55,308 nucleotides of DNA from Candidatus Poseidoniales archaeon (GTDB lineage Archaea > Thermoplasmatota > Poseidoniia > MGIII > CG-Epi1), in assembly GCA_045567955.1 (NCBI GenBank), contig JBJLBX010000033.1, positions 1 to 55,308 of the forward strand. The letters are read 5' to 3'. Both the position numbers and the translations under genes were made by a program. Below the pieces are notes generated by a model. The model was not told the origin of the DNA. It saw nothing but the letters and a program-made list of their open reading frames with translations, and did no database searches. How positions within the stretch are numbered: the first letter of the stretch is position 1; the number at the start of each line of letters is the position of its first letter. This document shows positions 24,631-50,725 of the stretch, piece by piece.

Positions 24631-25326
24631 ATGAACATACGTAGCAACATGAATCACAGTCTGTTTGCATTGCTGATTCTAACAGCATTGATAGCTGGTA
24701 AAAGTGTTGATGGATATCCAGCAGGAGGTGCGCAAGAAGGTGCTGGTGAAGAGTGGGCTGCTGACGTGGTTGCACATGGATGCTCATGTCATGCCGACAC
24801 TCAATTGAATGAAGGGATGTACGGGCTAGAAGGGATTCCGCAAAAATATGTTCCTGAGCAAACGTATAATATTTCTCTACAAATAAATGATACTAATGTA
24901 ATTTCAGAAGAAGGTGTTCTTAGATATGGTGGTTTTCTAAGTGAAGTAAGTGAAGGAGCTTACCAAAACAGTGAAAATTATTGGGTTGGTGCTGATGGAG
25001 CATATATTTCTCATAATGCAAATAGCAATGATGTACGAAATTGGACATTTCAATGGACTGCTCCTGCTGAAGGGACTGGTGATGCTGTCTTCACTATGTA
25101 TTTTAATGTAGTCGATGGAGTTGGAGCTACTGGTGATCAATGGTCTTATTTTACAGCCATATCTTTAGGAACTCCTCAATTAGCCTCAGAAGAAATTTCA
25201 ATTCATGAACTTGGAGTAGAACTAATGCAGTATTGGATTGGACTTATAGGAATCGGTGTAGTTTTCTTAGCAATACTTGTTGCTTATCTAGTAATTAGAG
25301 GAGGGAGTTCACATTACCGAGGTTAA
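24631..25326 (+). CDS. secreted, membrane-anchored Reeler-like domain protein with CxCH motif
   Basis: Signal peptide, HGCSCH, GIPQKYVPEQTYNI, WTFQWTAP, C-terminal TM helix. Confidence 0.7.
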   Translation: MNIRSNMNHSLFALLILTALIAGKSVDGYPAGGAQEGAGEEWAADVVAHGCSCHADTQLNEGMYGLEGIPQKYVPEQTYNISLQINDTNVISEEGVLRYGGFLSEVSEGAYQNSENYWVGADGAYISHNANSNDVRNWTFQWTAPAEGTGDAVFTMYFNVVDGVGATGDQWSYFTAISLGTPQLASEEISIHELGVELMQYWIGLIGIGVVFLAILVAYLVIRGGSSHYRG

Positions 25327-25678
25327 CGAAATTCTAGAAAAAGTAGCAAAAGGTGAACTTACTACGGAAGATGCGCAAAAAATATTAGGCACTTACAAAG
25401 ATGAAGAACTTGGAAAAGAATTACGAAATATTCCAGGTAAAGAACAACTTGAAATTTTTGCAATAATAATCATATTACTGCTACTTGAGCTTATGTATGA
25501 TTCTTTGTTTATCTATGGAATCATAGAAGGATGGGATCAGCAATTCTTATCATTTACACTCGCCATGGCATTCTTAATTTTAGGACTTATGATTGACTTT
25601 TACAGGAGATCATTCATGCCGGACGTACTAGAGGCTAAAAAACGAAGGAGGAAAGTTATTACAAAACTTGAACGCTAA
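25313..25678 (+). CDS. 121-aa membrane protein, probable ATT start (ORF track reports only the last 61 aa)
   Basis: Open frame from ATT 25313 (TEVNEILEKVAKGELTTEDAQKIL...) with SD GGAGGGAG 5 nt upstream; in-frame TAA at 25292 and no ATG/GTG/TTG before 25493. Confidence 0.7.
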   Translation: MTEVNEILEKVAKGELTTEDAQKILGTYKDEELGKELRNIPGKEQLEIFAIIIILLLLELMYDSLFIYGIIEGWDQQFLSFTLAMAFLILGLMIDFYRRSFMPDVLEAKKRRRKVITKLER

Positions 25679-25680
25679 AT

Positions 25681-26355
25681 ATGAATATTACACGTAGAGG
25701 ATTTTTACAAGGAGCTATTGGTTTAGCTGGTGCAGGGATGGCTGGTGCATTGTCAGTTCCTGCTTTGAAAACACTGTTGCCACCTCCGATTACAAGATGT
25801 AATTCTGATGATGCTCATGAAACTCTTACTTACAAAAAAGAAGAAGGAAAATGGTATGAAGATAAAGGCGGAGATATTGCGAAAAAAGAGGATTTTAATC
25901 TCTGGGACGTAGCTATTGTTAATTGGGCTCCAAAAGAATTAGAAGAAGAACTGGGAAGTTGTGAAATACAACTAGCACTCGCAAAGGTACCCTCTGAGAG
26001 TGGTATGGAAGGATTGGGAATAAGTGTAGATAATGGAAATGCAATGATGATGGCATACCACACTTACAAATGCCCTCATTTATGTTGTAAACCTGTTTTT
26101 ACAGCTCAGGGAAAAAGTACTATCTCTGGAAATGATTATGAAAATATGTTCCTATGTCCTTGCCACTTGTCTTTGTTTGATCCATTGGATGTGATTAAGA
26201 ATGTTGATGAGCAAGGACGCGAAGTTATGGCTGCGAAACTCTTAGAAGGTCCAGCTCCTTACGGACTTCCAGTAGTTCCTATTGATGAAAAAAATGGAGG
26301 ATTAATCGGCCTAACCACTCATTTAGATTGGCTAAAATATTGCGGGCAAGGATAA
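25681..26355 (+). CDS. Rieske [2Fe-2S] subunit of a cytochrome bc-type complex
   Basis: Tat signal TRRGFL; Rieske boxes CPHLCC and CPCHLS; GPAPYGLP. Confidence 0.9.
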   Translation: MNITRRGFLQGAIGLAGAGMAGALSVPALKTLLPPPITRCNSDDAHETLTYKKEEGKWYEDKGGDIAKKEDFNLWDVAIVNWAPKELEEELGSCEIQLALAKVPSESGMEGLGISVDNGNAMMMAYHTYKCPHLCCKPVFTAQGKSTISGNDYENMFLCPCHLSLFDPLDVIKNVDEQGREVMAAKLLEGPAPYGLPVVPIDEKNGGLIGLTTHLDWLKYCGQG

Positions 26356-26357
26356 AT

Positions 26358-27305
26358 ATGAAAATCAATAAGATTATTACTCTGGTAATTGGATGTTTGG
26401 CTCTTTTTGCATTGCCAGTTAGTGCTGAAACTCCGATATTAGAAGAATTAATGAGAAAATATACATTCCCATTAATATTCTTGTCAATGGCTGGAGCTGT
26501 TTTTGGTATTGGTTATCTTTATTTTACTGGTTTACTTCATAAAGTAATATTTGAGACATGGGCATGGATTGATGAACGATTTGCATTACATAAATATATT
26601 TCTTTAGCAAAAAGAGAATACTACTCAGTAGTATACACTCTTTTACCGGCTACTGGACGGACTATCCCTCAATCACATACTGAAAGATATAATGTAAAAT
26701 CTGTATGGTATTGGTATCCTTTTTATTCTTTAGGAGGCTTATCTTTTTTCGCATACATTATTCTTACAATTACTGGGATTTATCTAGGGTTTTATTATGT
26801 ACCTGATGGAGAATTCATATTAGATGAAAACGGACACTCGACTTCTGGTGCATACAAATCTATGGAATTAATTATGACGCAGGTAACATTTGGATATATT
26901 ATTCGAGCAGTGCATCATTGGTCAGCTCACTTCATGGTAGCTTCTGTATTTCTTCATATGATGAGAGTTTACTTTGTTGGAGCTTATCGAAATCCACGTG
27001 AAATAAATTGGATGCTCGGAGCTATTCTTTTAATGGTTACTATTTTCTTTGGATATACAGGTTATCTACTACCTTGGGATTCTCTTGGTTATGCAGCGGG
27101 ATCTATTGGTTTAGAAATGGCTACATCTATACCTGCAATGGGACCTCTAATGGCTCAAATTGTTTTTGGTGGGACCCAATTAACAGGAGATACTGTAACT
27201 AGAATGTATTGGCTACATATTTTTGTTCTTCCTCTAGTCGGTACAGTTTTGATTATTATTCATATGGCACTTGTTTGGATACAAGGGGAGGCTGAGCCGC
27301 ACTGA
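26358..27305 (+). CDS. petB: cytochrome b6-type (short) cytochrome b with N-terminal extension
   Basis: RAVHHWSAHFMVASVFLHMMRV, YRNPREINW, GYTGYLLPWD, LHIFVLP...IHM (14 residues between the His ligands of helix D). Confidence 0.92.
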   Translation: MKINKIITLVIGCLALFALPVSAETPILEELMRKYTFPLIFLSMAGAVFGIGYLYFTGLLHKVIFETWAWIDERFALHKYISLAKREYYSVVYTLLPATGRTIPQSHTERYNVKSVWYWYPFYSLGGLSFFAYIILTITGIYLGFYYVPDGEFILDENGHSTSGAYKSMELIMTQVTFGYIIRAVHHWSAHFMVASVFLHMMRVYFVGAYRNPREINWMLGAILLMVTIFFGYTGYLLPWDSLGYAAGSIGLEMATSIPAMGPLMAQIVFGGTQLTGDTVTRMYWLHIFVLPLVGTVLIIIHMALVWIQGEAEPH

Positions 27306-28360
27306 TGAGTGAAGATGATGCCATTGAAATGATTTATGAACATCAAGAAGAAAAAATATCTCTTGATACAATTAAAAAATTAGAAGATAGAGAGGAGCAT
27401 TCTGTTCTTGAAGCTGAAATGGTAAAAGGTGAACCTCTTTATCCACATGAAGTGACCAGAGATTCTGTTTTAAGTTTGTATATAATGGCCTTATTTTTCT
27501 ATTTAGCTGCGTTTATTCCACCTCCATTACATGAAGCTGCAGATCCAACTGCAGGTACTGCTTTTCCACCTCCTTTACCAGATTGGTACCTATTATGGGC
27601 TTTTGGATGTTTGAAAGTAGCATGGGATATTCAGATTTTAATTCCTCTATCAAGTATACCTTTCTTAGGATTAGATGATATTCACCTTTTCCTAATGACT
27701 GCCAAAGTGTGGGGCACTTTAGTTCAAGGTATGATTATTGGACTTGTAGTTGCCGTTCCTTTCCTTGATAGAGCTATAGGGGCGTTAATTGATCCTCAAT
27801 ATGGAGACGTAATCAACCGAGGACACGAAAGACGACCTATTGAAGATCCTGTGAGAGCTGCAATTGGAGTTTATGGAATTGCAATGGTCATAATGCTATC
27901 TGTTTTCTCAGTTAATGCTAATATTGCAATATATTATCCGCAAGTTAATACTGACGTATTGTCTCAACTAACTCTTTGGGGACCTATTGGTTCAGCTCTA
28001 ATAACCTATATGTTCTTAGATAGGAGACGGTCTGAAGGTGCTAAACCATTAACTGATGAGGAACGATTTGATCTTTATGTAGATGGAATAAAAGATCGAA
28101 GAATGCAACGTATTTATGAATTTAAATTAAATCGTTGTTATCAATGTGGACTTTGTGATGACATCTGTCCAGTAAGAGATATGGAAGGTGAACACGAACT
28201 AAATATTATATTTAATACATTTCAAAATGAGCATGATGGGGTGGCTATGTGGTCATGTATTACTTGTGGCATGTGCACTGCTGTATGCCCGCAAAACATC
28301 GAATATGTTGATTATGTATTAGAACAAAGAGCATTAACTACAATGGGAGTAAGCTTATGA
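27305..28360 (+). CDS. cytochrome b6 subunit IV fused to an HdrC-like 2x[4Fe-4S] domain
   Basis: ADP...PDWYLLW Qo motif, VPFLDR, RRP; C-terminal CYQCGLCDDICP and CITCGMCTAVCP. Confidence 0.85.
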   Translation: MSEDDAIEMIYEHQEEKISLDTIKKLEDREEHSVLEAEMVKGEPLYPHEVTRDSVLSLYIMALFFYLAAFIPPPLHEAADPTAGTAFPPPLPDWYLLWAFGCLKVAWDIQILIPLSSIPFLGLDDIHLFLMTAKVWGTLVQGMIIGLVVAVPFLDRAIGALIDPQYGDVINRGHERRPIEDPVRAAIGVYGIAMVIMLSVFSVNANIAIYYPQVNTDVLSQLTLWGPIGSALITYMFLDRRRSEGAKPLTDEERFDLYVDGIKDRRMQRIYEFKLNRCYQCGLCDDICPVRDMEGEHELNIIFNTFQNEHDGVAMWSCITCGMCTAVCPQNIEYVDYVLEQRALTTMGVSL

Positions 28361-29244
28361 GTCGAAAAGAACCATATTCAAGAACTATTCCGCACCCTCT
28401 TTTTGAGAGACTTATCGTAGAAGACGCGATGAATAAAGAAAATGATTCTTGGAAGCCTGAACGACCTCACGAATATGGGTATTTTCCTGGATGTGTAGAC
28501 TTTATGGATGTTGAAGTTAAATTTACACATCTGAATAAAGGAGATGCAGACCATGCTTCAATTGCTGCCGCATCGATTAAATTATTGAACTATGCTGATA
28601 TTGATCCCCTAATACTAGACATGAACATATTCAAATGTTCAGGACATGACCAATTATGGCAAGGACAATTGGAAGTATTTGATGCACTCAAAGAACATAA
28701 TATGAAAAGATTGAAAGAATCTGGCATTAAAATTATAACTTGTTCATGTGCTGAATGTTATCGTACTTTTGCTGTAGATTATGATCTTCCAGGTACATTG
28801 GGTATTAAGGTAGAACATATTACACAAACATTACAAGGCCGGGGATTGAAATTCAAGGCTCCTGAAGGAGTAACTGTAGCATATCACGATCCTTGTCGTC
28901 TAGGTAGAATGATGGGAGAATATGATGCGCCTAGAGATTTAATTCAACTTGTTGACGGAGCTACAATGGTTGAATTAGAGAATAATAAAGAACGGGCTTT
29001 GTGTTGTGGAGTTTCTTCAATGATGTATTGTAATGACGCCACTAAAGCCGTTCGTCGAAAAAGATTAGACCAAGGTACTGATGCAGGTATTGATTTGATG
29101 TTAGGAGGGTGTCCTAAATGTTACATGCATATGCAATGTATGCTAAATGAAGAACGAATGAACCCTGAAGAAGGACATCATCATGACTATGAAATGATGG
29201 ATTTAATGCAATTCTTAGTTGCTTGTTTGGAGGAAAAGAATTAG
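28357..29244 (+). CDS. CCG-domain Fe-S protein (HdrB/HdrD/GlpC-like)
   Basis: YFPGC...CSG...CAEC and YHDPC...CCG...CPKC: two cysteine-rich CCG domains. Confidence 0.88.
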   Translation: MSRKEPYSRTIPHPLFERLIVEDAMNKENDSWKPERPHEYGYFPGCVDFMDVEVKFTHLNKGDADHASIAAASIKLLNYADIDPLILDMNIFKCSGHDQLWQGQLEVFDALKEHNMKRLKESGIKIITCSCAECYRTFAVDYDLPGTLGIKVEHITQTLQGRGLKFKAPEGVTVAYHDPCRLGRMMGEYDAPRDLIQLVDGATMVELENNKERALCCGVSSMMYCNDATKAVRRKRLDQGTDAGIDLMLGGCPKCYMHMQCMLNEERMNPEEGHHHDYEMMDLMQFLVACLEEKN

Positions 29245-30065
29245 TGGCTGAAATCGACAAAAATTTCATGACTACATATGCAAAAGTTGCAACCCATGAT
29301 GGAGATGATGAGCCAATTCAAATTTGGGCTAAAGATTCCGATTCATATGGTGGAGTTGGAACTGATAAACTAGGAATATGGGGAAGTGTTGTCGCTGTCG
29401 ATTTTGATATTTGTGTAGCTGATGGGGCTTGCGTTGATGCTTGCCCAGTAGATGTTTTTGATTGGATTGATACACCTAATCATCCTGCTTCTGACAAGAA
29501 AGCAGTCGGAGCTCGAGAACCAGATTGCATTGTTTGTAGAGCTTGTGAAGAAGTATGTCCTGTAGACGCGATCCTGATAACCGATCCTGCAGACATCGGA
29601 TCTACTGATTCTACTACTGAAACTGAAGAGAAAGAAGAAAAACCTGCTGAAGCTGTTGTTGAAACTCAAACTCCAGTTGTTTCAGAAACTACTTCTTTAT
29701 TCTTCAAGAAACCAAACAAATGGCTAACTGCTGCTAAAAACGTACTAGATAAAGAAGAATTACCAACAACTGGTATTGAAAAAGCCAAATCTATGTTTAA
29801 GGATTTAAGAAAAATGACTTTAGATTCATTACCGAGAGGGAAAAATTATATTGCATTAGTAGATAATGAAAAATGTATAGGTTGTACTCAATGCGTTTAT
29901 TTCTGTAATTTTGCTTCAATAGATATGATTTCATGGGATTTAAAAGCCCGAACTTCTCAATTCGAATCTAAAAAAGCACTTATTCTTGACGATACTTGTA
30001 CTGGTTGTACACTCTGTGCCTTTGCCTGCCCAGTTGAGGCAATTACTATGGAAGCTAGAGTCTAG
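29244..30065 (+). CDS. two-domain polyferredoxin (7Fe Zn-ferredoxin-like domain plus 2x[4Fe-4S] domain)
   Basis: CVADGAC..ACP and CIVCRAC..VCP; acidic linker; CIGCTQC..FC and CTGCTLC..ACP; GTG 29244 preceded by GGAGG. Confidence 0.88.
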   Translation: MAEIDKNFMTTYAKVATHDGDDEPIQIWAKDSDSYGGVGTDKLGIWGSVVAVDFDICVADGACVDACPVDVFDWIDTPNHPASDKKAVGAREPDCIVCRACEEVCPVDAILITDPADIGSTDSTTETEEKEEKPAEAVVETQTPVVSETTSLFFKKPNKWLTAAKNVLDKEELPTTGIEKAKSMFKDLRKMTLDSLPRGKNYIALVDNEKCIGCTQCVYFCNFASIDMISWDLKARTSQFESKKALILDDTCTGCTLCAFACPVEAITMEARV

Positions 30066-30078
30066 TCTTAATGATTAG

Positions 30079-30582
30079 ATGAATTTGTACTATTCTATTA
30101 TTGTAGCGATATGGTTAGCTGTTTTGTATGCTATTTGGGCAGCTACCAAAGCAGGAGACCCTGGATTTGGTCAAGTTGCATTCCTTGCAGGCGGGATATT
30201 TGCAACATTTTATCTAAGAAAAAGAAAATTAGAAAGACCTAGAATCAATTTAGATGATATCGAAATACCTGAAGCTGAATTTTCAGTAGAAATTGAATAT
30301 GAAACTGGAAAATACTTTTTTAGTGAAAAGGCATATAGAAGAATCATATGGTTTTCCAACATATTTGCCTTACTATCTATTAGCTTTTTCTTAGAAGCAT
30401 TTCTGACAAAAAAATATCTTTCATGGGGTGTTTTTTTACTAATTTTAGGAATGATTATATTTGTTATTCCTATTTTAATTCCTGTAAAAGATGATATTGA
30501 AACTCTAAAGAAAAGAGCTCAAAAAGAGAGATTGAAGGCTTGGAGTAAAGGTAAATCCAACCCTCTTGATGAAGAAGAGTGA
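30079..30582 (+). CDS. hypothetical membrane protein (4 TM)
   Basis: Four hydrophobic segments; co-oriented with the operon. Confidence 0.65.
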   Translation: MNLYYSIIVAIWLAVLYAIWAATKAGDPGFGQVAFLAGGIFATFYLRKRKLERPRINLDDIEIPEAEFSVEIEYETGKYFFSEKAYRRIIWFSNIFALLSISFFLEAFLTKKYLSWGVFLLILGMIIFVIPILIPVKDDIETLKKRAQKERLKAWSKGKSNPLDEEE

Positions 30583-31855: not shown

Positions 31856-32359
31856 CTATGCTTTTAGACTTATATCGTAACCGATTACATCACCATTAGG
31901 CTCGAACTTCATACGGAATGAGTAGTCAGTGACATCACTAACTCCTTCTAAATCCGAGTCTGGTTCAGCCGGGTGAACTTCGAACTTGTCACCTGGGCTC
32001 AACTTTCCATTGAAGTCGTTGTCCATGAATACTACAGCTTTACCCTGTCCAGAGTAATAACCATATACATCAGAGACTAAGCCATCAGTCTTTGTGTTTC
32101 CCTCTACATCTAGTAAGTACCAGTGTACAGAGTTTACGGAAACTTGTGGGTTAAGCTTGACAATAGATATTGTCCAGGTCCCCTGTCCGTCTGAGTTTGC
32201 GGTCATACTGCCGGTTGGTGCATTCTTGGTTGTACCACCAAGGAAACTGCTAGCCCAAACGTACAGTACTGCAGCCAGAACGACTGTAATAGCTACCATC
32301 AAAATGACAGCAATTACAGGTGAAACTGCCTGCTCATCGTTTACTATTCTTCGTTTCAT
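31856..32359 (-). CDS. archaeal type IV pilin (probable major pilin)
   Basis: EQA|VSPVIAVILMVAITVVLAAVLYVW class III signal; C-ending codon bias typical of highly expressed genes. Confidence 0.9.
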   Translation of the reverse strand: MKRRIVNDEQAVSPVIAVILMVAITVVLAAVLYVWASSFLGGTTKNAPTGSMTANSDGQGTWTISIVKLNPQVSVNSVHWYLLDVEGNTKTDGLVSDVYGYYSGQGKAVVFMDNDFNGKLSPGDKFEVHPAEPDSDLEGVSDVTDYSFRMKFEPNGDVIGYDISLKA

Positions 32360-32405
32360 TGTTGTGTCCTCTGACCTAAGTCAGAAATATAAGAATACTA
32401 GGACT

Positions 32406-32425
32406 GCATATATACCTTACGTTAA
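32406..32425 (-). promoter_or_regulatory. pilin promoter core (BRE-TATA), copy 1
   Basis: Minus-strand TTAACGTAAGGTATATATGC, identical to 33044-33063. Confidence 0.7.
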
Positions 32426-32493
32426 AAGAACTTGAATAGAAAAAATAGCATAAGCTAGAACGTTCTACTATTTTTCAAATTATTAAATCTATT

Positions 32494-33000
32494 CTAACTT
32501 GCAAACTGAGTATCGTAACCGATAGTATCACCGGTTGGATCGAATTTCATACGGAAAGAATAATCTGTAAGATCAGTAGCTGACTCTAATTGAGTTCCAG
32601 CTGCGCCAGGATAAATTACGAATTGGTCACCAGGGCTTACTTTAGCATCAAAGTCATTATCAATATAAATTACAGCTTTTCCTTCACCTTCTTTGTAACC
32701 ATAAACATCTGAAACCATACCTTCTACTTTTGTAACATCAGTATAATCCAAAAGATACCAATGCACTGAAGTGATTGAAACGGTAGGACTCATTTTTATG
32801 ACACTAACTTTCCAAACATCACTTCCATCGTTCTCAACCATCATACTGCCAGTTGGTGGACTTTTTGGAGAACCGCCAATAATTCCGCCTAACCATGCAT
32901 ACAATACTGCTGCCATTACTACAGTAATAGCGACCATTAAGATAACGGCAATTACTGGAGATACAGCTTCTTCATTCTTGTTAATAATTCTGCGATTCAT
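32494..33000 (-). CDS. archaeal type IV pilin paralog
   Basis: EEA|VSPVIAVILMVAITVVMAAVLY; clearly homologous to 31856-32359. Confidence 0.9.
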   Translation of the reverse strand: MNRRIINKNEEAVSPVIAVILMVAITVVMAAVLYAWLGGIIGGSPKSPPTGSMMVENDGSDVWKVSVIKMSPTVSITSVHWYLLDYTDVTKVEGMVSDVYGYKEGEGKAVIYIDNDFDAKVSPGDQFVIYPGAAGTQLESATDLTDYSFRMKFDPTGDTIGYDTQFAS

Positions 33001-33043: not shown

Positions 33044-33063
33044 GCATATATACCTTACGTTAA
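33044..33063 (-). promoter_or_regulatory. pilin promoter core (BRE-TATA), copy 2
   Basis: Identical 20-mer to 32406-32425 at a similar distance from the ATG. Confidence 0.7.
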
Positions 33064-33582
33064 TCTATCTCTTCTGAGAACTAAGGCACCGATAATTGTC
33101 AGGAGAACTGTTATACTTGCTCCAGTCCAAGCTAAAGAAAGTGCCCATTCTGGAACTCCTGTATTGCTTTCAGCTAAAATTTCAGGTGATCTTAAAACTG
33201 AATCATATGAAGCCCATGTTGTCCCATTTTGAGTCATGAAAACTATTCTTAATTCAGCGTTTCCCTCTCCTAAATTAAATGATTCTGTGGGTGCCTGCCA
33301 ATGAAAAACCCAACCTTCACTACTGTCTGTTAAATTAATTTCTAAATTAGAGTCTCCGAACTCTTCAGTTTCACTTAACGTCCCATTAGTTGTTGTAACA
33401 ATAATATAAGAAACTGATGTAGAATTACTTACTGTAAGATCTATCTGATAAGATTTGCCACTTTCATAATGTAAATTATCGGGAATTCCATCGACACGGT
33501 ACAAATTATCTTCAGCCTGAACCGAAGGTAAAAATAAACCAATGGCAAACACCAAAATTAGATAATTTCGTAGTCTATACAT
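33055..33582 (-). CDS. secreted membrane-anchored protein, degenerate Reeler-like
   Basis: Signal peptide, DGIPDNLHYESGKSYQI, WVFHWQAP, C-terminal TM helix; resembles the 24631 protein without the CxCH. Confidence 0.6.
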   Translation of the reverse strand: MYRLRNYLILVFAIGLFLPSVQAEDNLYRVDGIPDNLHYESGKSYQIDLTVSNSTSVSYIIVTTTNGTLSETEEFGDSNLEINLTDSSEGWVFHWQAPTESFNLGEGNAELRIVFMTQNGTTWASYDSVLRSPEILAESNTGVPEWALSLAWTGASITVLLTIIGALVLRRDRLT

Positions 33583-50104: not shown

Positions 50105-50725
50105 TTAATTTTCCCTGACAAAACCACACTCTTTACATTCATAATCTGGATATAAATCAGGATTGTTCGGTGATGCACCATGCCAATGGAAAGTATATTT
50201 TCCACACTTAACACAATATGAATTCTGTTTGTATCCAGTATATGCATGAGGTCGTTGTTGCATTACTGGTGTAACTGGTATTTGAGACGCTGAAGATGCT
50301 ATTGGTTGAGAATTGGCAACTGGTTCTTCAATTTTTTCTTCTTCTGTAACTGCCTCAGTAGGAGATCCTGAGTCTATATCTCCTGGGTCAGTTATCAATA
50401 CAGCTACAACCGGACATACTTCTTCGCAAGCTCTGCAAATAATACAATCTGGCTCTCTGGCCATTATTGCTTTCTTATCAGAAGCAGGATGGTTTGGAGT
50501 ATCAATCCAATCGTAAACATCTACAGGACAAGCTTCAATACAAGCTCCATCGGCTACACAAATATCAAAATCGACAGCGACAACACTTCCCCATATTCCT
50601 AGTTTATCAGTTCCAACTCCACCATATGAATCGGAATCTTTAGCCCAAATTTGAATTGGTTCATCGTCTCCATCGTGGGTTGCAACTTTTGCATATGTAG
50701 TCAGGAAATTCTTGGCAATGCTCAT
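50105..50725 (-). CDS. 7Fe Zn-ferredoxin-like protein fused to a C-terminal Zn ribbon
   Basis: CVADGAC..ACP and CIICRAC..VCP; Pro/Ser/Glu linker; CVKC...CKEC. Confidence 0.82.
   Translation of the reverse strand: MSIAKNFLTTYAKVATHDGDDEPIQIWAKDSDSYGGVGTDKLGIWGSVVAVDFDICVADGACIEACPVDVYDWIDTPNHPASDKKAIMAREPDCIICRACEEVCPVVAVLITDPGDIDSGSPTEAVTEEEKIEEPVANSQPIASSASQIPVTPVMQQRPHAYTGYKQNSYCVKCGKYTFHWHGASPNNPDLYPDYECKECGFVREN
50553..50659 (-). repeat. 107-bp perfect inverted copy of 29313-29419 (ferredoxin paralogs)
   Basis: Reverse complement matches base for base on manual alignment. Confidence 0.9.

Follow-up and report, generated by a model that had tools for sequence, protein, structure and literature searches.

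A Rieske/cytochrome b operon of a Marine Group III archaeon in which subunit IV is fused to an HdrC-like iron-sulfur domain

Results and discussion

A 55,308-nt stretch of DNA from a Marine Group III (MGIII) archaeon (Candidatus Poseidoniales, contig JBJLBX010000033.1 of assembly GCA_045567955.1) contains an operon of eight genes, here named g1 to g8, for a Rieske/cytochrome b complex that captured an electron wire of the EtfD/HdrD type. The whole stretch is called the window in the following, and positions given without a contig or locus are positions of it. The best explanation for the encoded proteins is that they form the Rieske/cytochrome b quinol oxidase ('complex III') of this archaeon. 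Its subunit IV is fused to a domain for two [4Fe-4S] clusters, and genes for a CCG-domain protein and a two-domain ferredoxin follow directly. Through this conserved design, electron carriers of the cytoplasm would probably have direct access to the quinone cycle. Few heterotrophs in the ocean are as abundant as the archaea of Marine Group II (MGII) and MGIII. The source genome (G000) has a completeness of 75.6% and a size of 0.99 Mb, spread over 43 contigs.

An eight-gene operon

The eight open reading frames (ORFs) occupy positions 24631-30582 of the forward strand. Domains were called by scoring Pfam and NCBIfam profiles against their curated cut-offs.

g1, 24631-25326, + strand: exported Reeler-like/choice-of-anchor V beta-sandwich protein (NCBIfam NF041895, 62.7 bits, cut-off 42)
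g2, 25493-25678, + strand: 61-aa protein with one transmembrane (TM) helix, DUF7318 (Pfam PF24002, 41.5 bits)
g3, 25681-26355, + strand: Rieske iron-sulfur protein with a twin-arginine (Tat) signal/anchor (TIGR01409, 22.7 bits, cut-off 16.7)
g4, 26358-27305, + strand: cytochrome b6-type four-helix cytochrome b (Pfam Cytochrome_B, 124 bits)
g5, membrane part, 27305-28039, + strand: subunit IV, the C-terminal half of cytochrome b, with a PDWY motif and TM helices E, F, G and H (AlphaFold2, Foldseek)
g5, predicted cytoplasmic part, 28097-28360, + strand: HdrC/NuoI-like 2x[4Fe-4S] domain fused to helix H (Pfam Fer4_8, 40.8 bits)
g6, 28357-29244, + strand: two-CCG-domain protein, putative HdrB/HdrD/EtfD-type partner of the iron-sulfur (Fe-S) domain of g5 (Pfam CCG, 66 bits)
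g7, 29223-30065, + strand: N-terminal zinc-ferredoxin-like dicluster domain (residues ~1-125), acidic linker and C-terminal dicluster domain (residues ~190-280) (four Fer4 motifs)
g8, 30079-30582, + strand: membrane protein with three to four hydrophobic segments (no Pfam or NCBIfam family)

The genes are packed tightly and nearly without spacers. They overlap by 1 nt (g4/g5), 4 nt (g5/g6) and 22 nt (g6/g7), and the 167 nt between g1 and g2 are the sole gap of note. The eight genes form one operon, and the coupled gene content proposed from the sequence alone was recovered in full, with every ORF in its place. Furthermore, in a survey of 79 related loci from species-representative genomes (locus numbers with L below) the gene order g1 to g8 was identical in the MGIII loci. 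The arrangement far exceeds chance expectation. RNA-library contigs from four marine studies cover g1 to g7 at 90-100% identity and span each junction from g1/g2 through g6/g7 (for instance X5 record 29, which covers 28179-28479 with zero differences). For g8, no contig was found on 30004-30582 in the four runs, from which nothing is concluded.

The gene content supports a Rieske/split cytochrome b complex without a c1/f gene, in agreement with the sequence-only reading. None of the ORFs of at least 80 aa on this contig contains a CxxCH motif as expected of a c-type cytochrome subunit (c1, f or dihaem c); the corresponding slot is taken by g1 with its (C)xCH motif.

The fusion of subunit IV with an iron-sulfur domain

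The whole g5 ORF (27305-28360) combines the PDWY motif with two CxxCxxCxxxCP motifs, CYQCGLCDDICP and CITCGMCTAVCP. Among 34 aligned sequences all eight cluster cysteines are invariant, and so are P92, D93, W94 and Y95, a Qo motif of the PEWY type; E49, R52 and D53 are nearly invariant. The AlphaFold2 model derived from these 34 sequences (pLDDT 67.7) has helices at residues 48-70, 133-162, 182-210 and 216-245, and short helices and the Fe-S domain come after the fourth. A hydropathy scan alone overlooked helix H, which was seen through the model together with the alignment. In Foldseek searches the membrane part matched actinobacterial QcrB (E = 8e-4) and subunit IV of the cytochrome b6f complex, and the tail matched HdrC. 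Matches of the Fe-S domain in the PDB were to HdrC (7bkb_C, E = 4e-6; HdrC chains from 4e-6 to 9e-5) and to FwdF. Residues 43-104 of g5 align weakly (E = 0.13) to residues 218-282 of mammalian cytochrome b. In this alignment R52-D53, located before helix E, would overlay residues 227-228, which we take to be the Lys227-Asp228 pair of the bc1 Qi site, and g5 seems to have retained a site of the Qi type.

Solved complexes have the N-terminus of subunit IV on the n side. Since four helices follow it in g5, the Fe-S domain is predicted to be cytoplasmic (n side), a placement that the model supports and that had been proposed from the helix count before. This location agrees with the basic stretch DRRR after the fourth helix and with the fact that Fe-S clusters are assembled in the cytoplasm; moreover, none of g5, g6 and g7 has a signal peptide.

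The sequence-only reading had named an assembly artefact as a possible source of the fusion. This is ruled out by metagenome proteins, by genomes from the whole class and by the related loci. In metagenomes, over 120 near-identical proteins align with g5 from end to end, two of them sourced from 'uncultured marine group II/III euryarchaeote'. Within the class Poseidoniia, 197 of 201 genomes have a g5 match. It extends over the full length in family f1 (39 of 42 genomes, two of these weakly), whereas in families f3 (65 of 66) and f4 (90 of 90) residues ~264-348 match within open frames of ~920-990 aa, and both of the two genomes in family f2 match at the level of the Fe-S domain alone (E = 3e-7). 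The MGII genome G006 encodes a 942-aa protein composed of subunit IV, an insert of ~300 aa, an extra TM helix, the 2x[4Fe-4S] domain and two CCG domains, and the gene for this fusion shares an operon with homologues of g1, g2, g3 and g4. The insert in the MGII subunit IV lies between two extra helices.

Among the 79 loci, a single ORF joins subunit IV and the Fe-S domain in 48 and subunit IV, Fe-S and CCG domains in eight; subunit IV stands alone in 22 (one cut by a contig end), and one locus has an unsplit cytochrome b. The core of g1, g2, g3, g4 and subunit IV was found across Thermoplasmatota and in halo-labelled metagenome-assembled genomes, the Fe-S extension in a subset of these. An exhaustive HMMER search of 1.84 billion representatives yielded 309 hits at E <= 0.001, including 14 at <= 1e-30. 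Ten distant hits were inspected: five combine PF00032, Fer4 and CCG, three have Fer4 and CCG together with an aligning PDWY region, and two have PF00032 and Fer4.

The two-CCG protein and the type of the module

That g6 is a two-CCG-domain protein, as read before, is true for the domains, but the first motif is incomplete: CCG1 reads KCSGHD, one Cys short, followed by TCSCAEC with an extra Cys. CCG2 is complete (C180, C216, C217, C252, C255). Across the family, CCG1 has CC in MGII and most members, CS in the window's genus and CV or CT elsewhere, and in several members CAEG replaces CAEC. Therefore the two-cluster Hdr active site is, judged by these residues, not conserved in the family.

Measured against HdrD/HdrBC, the two CxxCxxCxxxCP motifs are present in g5, whereas two complete CCG motifs are not found in the window, where CCG1 deviates; MGII and many others have CC in both. 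The curated NCBIfam models for Hdr proteins match far below their cut-offs (HdrB 20.9 bits, cut-off 450; HdrC 30-33 bits, cut-offs 160-350), as does that for DsrK; the TfrB model also stays below its cut-off. The best solved relative of g6 is EtfD (9ojn_A, E = 3e-14); HdrB scores E = 3e-5. With EtfD it shares a CCG1 with a single Cys (CS versus CT/CN), but the His of CPHC is Glu in the CAEC found here. Two other features of EtfD, its own N-terminal haem b domain and neighbouring genes for electron transfer flavoprotein (ETF), were not found at the operon; here the module sits on subunit IV.

The triple fusions in MGII and eight other loci are Rosetta-stone evidence which supports that the Fe-S domain of g5 and g6 form one HdrD-type unit. 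The HdrD architecture recognized earlier in the combination of 2x[4Fe-4S] and CCG domains is thus realized in a single polypeptide there. The thiol/disulfide substrate proposed along with it fared less well, considering the degenerate first motif and the closest relative, EtfD, which is described as non-catalytic.

A further HdrD-like gene lies on contig C14 of the source genome (2052-4801; locus L102, 217-2966). Its 663-aa product combines a membrane part at the N-terminus with 2x[4Fe-4S] and with two CCG domains that bear the EtfD-type motifs (CN, CPHC), and an ETF subunit gene is located directly 3' of it. This gene is probably the archaeon's ETF:quinone oxidoreductase. With such a true EtfD-type gene beside ETF genes, the complex III module appears as a paralogue with a different partner.

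The ferredoxin/flavodoxin protein g7

The description of g7 as a four-cluster ferredoxin or polyferredoxin needs a correction: the four Fer4 motifs are there, but they belong to two different dicluster domains connected by an acidic linker. Residues 10-87 match the NCBIfam model ZFX_Thplmales (zinc-containing ferredoxin of Thermoplasmatales) with 63.5 bits. The genome also encodes two free-standing ferredoxins that share 79% and 67% identity with the N-domain. The one with 79% identity lies in the window (50105-50725, - strand; 206 aa), and behind its ferredoxin domain it has a Cys-rich tail resembling a zinc ribbon. Contig C26 carries a third copy of the domain, so that the same domain occurs with different C-terminal adaptors.

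The C-terminal dicluster domain is the conserved, complex-associated part of g7. It occurs as a protein of 136-174 aa after the CCG gene in other Thermoplasmata and as a ferredoxin of ~110 aa in MGII, directly after the fusion gene in G002 and G012 and 14 kb away in G006. In sister MGIII genomes (L028, L035, L044) a Flavodoxin_1 domain (94-101 bits) replaces the N-domain before the same C-domain. The surveyed loci comprise 14 complete ferredoxin-type genes and three cut by contig ends, as well as 12 complete flavodoxin-type genes and three cut by contig ends; a second, overlapping sample of 19 same-genus loci comprises eight of the ferredoxin and nine of the flavodoxin type and two too short to type. 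Ferredoxin and flavodoxin are classic interchangeable low-potential carriers. Their swap is the strongest sign that the N-domain acts as an electron shuttle and suggests a low-potential carrier tethered to the complex; it also ties the complex to the iron economy in surface waters. A structure prediction for the Fe-S domain of g5, g6 and the C-domain of g7 scored 0.18 against a mark of 0.32 and is used neither for nor against binding.

Rieske protein and cytochrome b6

The translation of g3 contains the Rieske boxes CPHLCC and CPCHLS (CxH and CxxH). There is no Pfam hit, and NCBIfam Rieske models match below their cut-offs; the assignment is based on the motifs and these sub-threshold matches.

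The b6 domain of g4 spans residues ~119-315 and aligns with solved cytochrome b6 chains at E = 4.5e-39. The ~110 residues ahead of it form an N-terminal extension in which there are two hydrophobic segments. The cytochrome b6 is thus 'short', as it had been called, with regard to its core but not as a whole protein. All four haem-ligand His residues for haems bL and bH on helices B and D are retained, in HHWSAHFMVASVFLH and LHIFVLPLVGTVLIIIH. Alignment with 1q90_B, 6rqf_I and 2zt9_A shows FYSLGG in place of FYCIGG, with a Ser instead of the Cys of FYCxGG that is presumably the covalent ligand of haem ci, and HMALVWIQG in place of HFLMIRKQG, with Trp instead of Arg. The Cys of haem ci/cn, which is a feature of b6f and Firmicute b6c complexes, was not found in g4, the aligned position being Ser. 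The N-terminal extension of cytochrome b6 varies in other Thermoplasmata: in L062 (2349-4319) it carries a cupredoxin domain and in L065 (3571-6840) four Big_5 Ig-like domains.

The outer face and the small membrane proteins

The g1 protein carries a signal peptide and the motif HGCSCH, and a TM helix anchors its C-terminus; besides the NCBIfam assignment there is a weak Pfam Reeler match (E = 0.005, under the cut-off). The residues of the (C)xCH motif are C51, C53 and H54. In 14 homologues C53, H54 and H128 are invariant, and the first Cys of CxCH varies. The AlphaFold2 model is a beta-sandwich (pLDDT 72.5) with fold matches to the reeler domain of F-spondin (E = 1.8e-6), to cytochrome f (E = 2.6e-4 and below) and to the copper-binding YcnI. 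MGII, MGIII and several Thermoplasmata have the Reeler-like domain in this slot; with the same C-terminal anchor it is replaced by a cupredoxin-like domain in L084, L088, L090 and L097 and by a CxxCH cytochrome c domain in L061. Since the slot carries a cupredoxin or a cytochrome c in other lineages, g1, which occupies the place of cytochrome c1/f, is the likely acceptor of electrons from the Rieske cluster.

A system I set for cytochrome c maturation is nearly universal among the MGIII genomes (of 23, PF01578 was found in 22 and CcmE in 18), whereas class I cytochrome c domains above the cut-off were found in none of the 23, and no credible exported CxxCH protein was found in the source genome. 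Taken together with the invariant Cys-His pair and the layout resembling cytochrome f, this makes g1 a candidate for an atypical haem c protein. As far as sequence goes, g1 may be a c-type cytochrome of an atypical kind, functionally analogous to cytochrome f, which we regard as a lead and not as a finding; a copper site is equally possible. Should g1 prove to be a c-type cytochrome, of the CxCH or single-Cys type, it would represent a new class of haem c proteins. Positions 6333-6917 of contig C32 were noted together with g1 for the maturation set. One CxxCH protein, on contig C37 (14360-14908, - strand), was considered as a cytochrome c and rejected. It is a membrane-anchored Redoxin/thioredoxin-like protein with the motif GCGTCH, possibly a thiol-reducing helper of cytochrome c maturation. 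Downstream of the operon, at 33055-33582 (- strand), an exported and anchored g1 paralogue of 175 aa is encoded in which the Cys-His motif is absent and which belongs to no Pfam family; several MGIII loci have a weak g1-like ORF at the same place.

With 67 homologous ORFs across the surveyed loci, g2 is a conserved companion of the archaeal-type Rieske/cytochrome b cluster. Homologues of g8 were found in 25 loci, each directly 3' of g7, and matched solely in L023-L059, which are near relatives (61-96% identity to g5). Further downstream, at 31856-33000 (- strand) and just downstream of the gene for the CCA-adding enzyme, there are two tandem paralogues of ~167 aa with archaeal class III (pilin/archaellin-like) signal peptides.

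Proposed mechanism and its alternatives

We propose, with moderate confidence, that the complex has an electron port on its n side, through which electrons from ferredoxin or flavodoxin would reach haem bH and the quinone at Qi. The products of the operon would assemble as one complex. On the outer face, electrons would pass from the Tat-exported Rieske protein to the anchored g1 or cupredoxin and on to a haem-copper oxidase. On the inner face, helix H bears the 2x[4Fe-4S] domain on which g6 would dock to form the HdrD/EtfD-type unit. The C-terminal dicluster domain of g7 most likely docks on this unit, holding the ferredoxin (flavodoxin in sister species) on the flexible acidic linker. In this way a wire of up to eight Fe-S clusters would join the tethered low-potential carrier to haem bH and the Qi site. 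A soluble oxidoreductase would reduce the tethered carrier; electrons running down the wire would reduce quinone at Qi with protons taken from the cytoplasm, and the quinol would then be oxidised at Qo. Such a scheme would amount to a hard-wired form of the route from ferredoxin to Qn that has been proposed for cyclic flow in b6f, and of the EtfD route from ETF via Fe-S clusters and haem b to menaquinone. The aerobic life presumed from the sequence is supported by the haem-copper oxidase COX1, found in 16 of 18 same-genus genomes; it was not found in the source genome (75.6% complete). In family f2, which is also without a g5-type gene, COX1 is sub-threshold in one of the two genomes and was not found in the other.

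Inward flow is favoured by the analogy to EtfD, by the conserved R52-D53, by the tethered carrier, which would suit a docking antenna, and by energetics, as electron transfer from bL via bH to ferredoxin is uphill and against the membrane potential. A number of observations weigh against the port as proposed. No donor was identified: POR_N, a family of 2-oxoacid:ferredoxin oxidoreductases, was found in six of the 23 family genomes (at least 80% complete) and was not found in the source genome, hence an obvious source of reduced ferredoxin is often not seen (by carrier, two of three ferredoxin-type and one of four flavodoxin-type genomes have POR_N, numbers too small to interpret). HdrDE and DsrMK run the same type of module outward, so that analogy leaves the direction unfixed. 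CCG2 keeps the full Hdr-type set of cysteines, and MGII and most others keep CC in CCG1, so that catalysis may take place at the noncubane site, and Glu of CAEC stands in g6 for the His583 ligand of EtfD. Other lineages hint at other partners. In one uncultured archaeon (L096, 8566-13009) genes for an HdrC-like protein, an HdrB-like protein and a 1014-aa HdrA-like flavoprotein come directly after the subunit IV-Fe-S-CCG fusion, and in L068 an MvhD-fused ferredoxin follows the operon. Moreover, the RNA-library contigs may hold DNA, and a single transcript is not provable from contigs.

Electrons could also take the opposite way, with quinol bifurcated at Qo: one electron would go to the Rieske protein and the oxidase, while the other would cross over bL and bH and leave along the wire of eight clusters, with the tethered ferredoxin or flavodoxin or another cytoplasmic acceptor at its end. 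If true, aerobic archaea of the ocean would obtain low-potential reductant from respiration itself. In 17 of the 23 family genomes no POR_N was found, and another source of reduced ferredoxin or flavodoxin would help there; also, it is the outward direction in which HdrDE and DsrMK use such a module (for the comparison with HdrDE see PMC13083937); a comparable role in generating NAD(P)H has been proposed for anammox Rieske/cytochrome b complexes (PMC12954380). However, we consider outward bifurcation unlikely. Transfer from the p side to the n side opposes the membrane potential, and known bH haems are far more positive than ferredoxin or the semiquinone/hydroquinone couples of flavodoxin. In addition, the conserved Qi-type R-D pair suggests normal quinone reduction, and a membrane tether limits the use of a general reductant, for which free ferredoxin paralogues exist.

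The same cysteines that leave room for catalysis might make g6 an HdrD/DsrK-like enzyme, whose noncubane cluster or clusters would either reduce a cytoplasmic disulfide or oxidise a dithiol, with cytochrome b as the link to the quinone pool. The architecture of 2x[4Fe-4S] and two CCG domains, the complete CCG2 (C...CC...CxxC), the CC of CCG1 in most members outside the window's genus and the sub-cut-off matches to TfrB, DsrK and HdrB speak for thiol chemistry. This is nevertheless quite improbable, given that CCG1 is CS here and CV or CT elsewhere and several members have CAEG, so that the two-cluster site is not kept, and that the closest solved relative is the non-catalytic EtfD. Also, no candidate thiol substrate was identified, and the downstream dicluster protein with its tethered ferredoxin or flavodoxin suits a through-wire better than an end-point active site. 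Finally, there may be no port at all, the Fe-S proteins being an appendage for redox sensing, assembly or regulation, or else a separate ferredoxin system that shares the operon. Electron transfer from the wire to bH is indeed something that we infer, and gene adjacency by itself is weak evidence of binding. But the Fe-S domain, and in MGII also the CCG domains, are covalently fused to a core catalytic subunit in families f1, f3 and f4 and in distant Thermoplasmatota, and the eight cluster cysteines of g5 are invariant, which makes this reading very unlikely.

Comparison with known systems

The halocyanin-Rieske/cytochrome b cluster of haloarchaea is described as having a second subunit with four helices (Baymann et al. 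2012, PMC3509893). A four-helix subunit IV by itself is, therefore, already known. Both clusters have cytochrome b split at b6/subunit IV, the extra (eighth) helix, no c1/f gene and small 'hypothetical' membrane proteins flanking them. The haloarchaeal subunit IV, as described there, stops after helix 8, whereas here helix 8 runs into the 2x[4Fe-4S] domain and genes for the CCG protein and the ferredoxin follow. Where some relatives have a cupredoxin, the Reeler-like g1 is found here.

For MGII, the text of Tully (2019, PMC6336850) mentions an 'MGII specific' complex III and notes only cytochrome b, Rieske and RnfB. No description of the subunit IV-Fe-S arrangement was found in literature searches; the supplementary tables of that paper may list the genes. 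The novelty suggested by the sequence-only reading accordingly stands for the fusion but, in view of the haloarchaeal cluster (PMC3509893), not for the four helices.

The closest solved counterpart of the module is EtfD of Mycobacterium smegmatis (9OJN; EMBO J 2026, PMC13083937). There, CCG1 with CT for CC binds a [3Fe-4S] cluster of linear form. The [4Fe-4S] cluster of CCG2 is noncubane, and its completion by His583 is, according to the authors, what renders it non-catalytic. Two cubane clusters lie between the CCG-bound clusters and a b haem that touches menaquinone, so that the protein is a wire from ETF to quinone. The operon resembles EtfD in having two cubane and two CCG-bound clusters at the cytoplasmic face of a haem b membrane domain, in the cubane domain being joined to a membrane helix with the CCG domains distal, and in the single Cys of the first CCG motif (CS versus CT) (PMC13083937). 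It differs in that EtfD has its own five-helix mono-haem domain, receives its electrons from ETF and has His583 (CPHC) where g6 has Glu (CAEC) (PMC13083937). Here the module is placed on subunit IV of a Rieske/cytochrome b complex, and the protein that comes next is of the ferredoxin/flavodoxin type.

HdrDE of methanogens and DsrMK of sulfate reducers likewise combine a dihaem membrane cytochrome b with a cytoplasmic 2x[4Fe-4S]+CCG subunit. In these, quinol or phenazine is oxidised outside, electrons cross over two b haems, and the CCG site is catalytic for a disulfide or trisulfide. Unlike the operon, their cytochrome b is NarI-like and comes without a Rieske protein, and thus without bifurcation at Qo.

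With the b6f complex, the operon shares the b6-type four-helix cytochrome b (the alignment at E = 4.5e-39 mentioned above) and subunit IV. It differs from it by the lack of haem ci/cn (Cys35 -> Ser, Arg207 -> Trp) and of cytochrome f. According to a proposal for b6f, low-potential carriers on the cytoplasmic or stromal side deliver electrons to the quinone site of the n side (Dibrova 2017, PMC5600118). The ferredoxin contact of b6f is transient and disputed, whereas here a wire is covalently built in. A complex wired in this way would be a natural experiment on whether carriers at the level of ferredoxin can feed Qi/Qn directly, as debated for cyclic flow through b6f. An exchange with a cytoplasmic low-potential couple has also been proposed for the Rieske/cytochrome b complexes of anammox bacteria (PMC12954380). 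Compared by their description in this source, these have other added subunits (NAD(P)H-linked, multihaem) and belong to another phylum with an anaerobic life style. They raise the second question to which the operon may contribute, namely whether the low-potential chain of a bc complex can be tapped for reductions in the cytoplasm.

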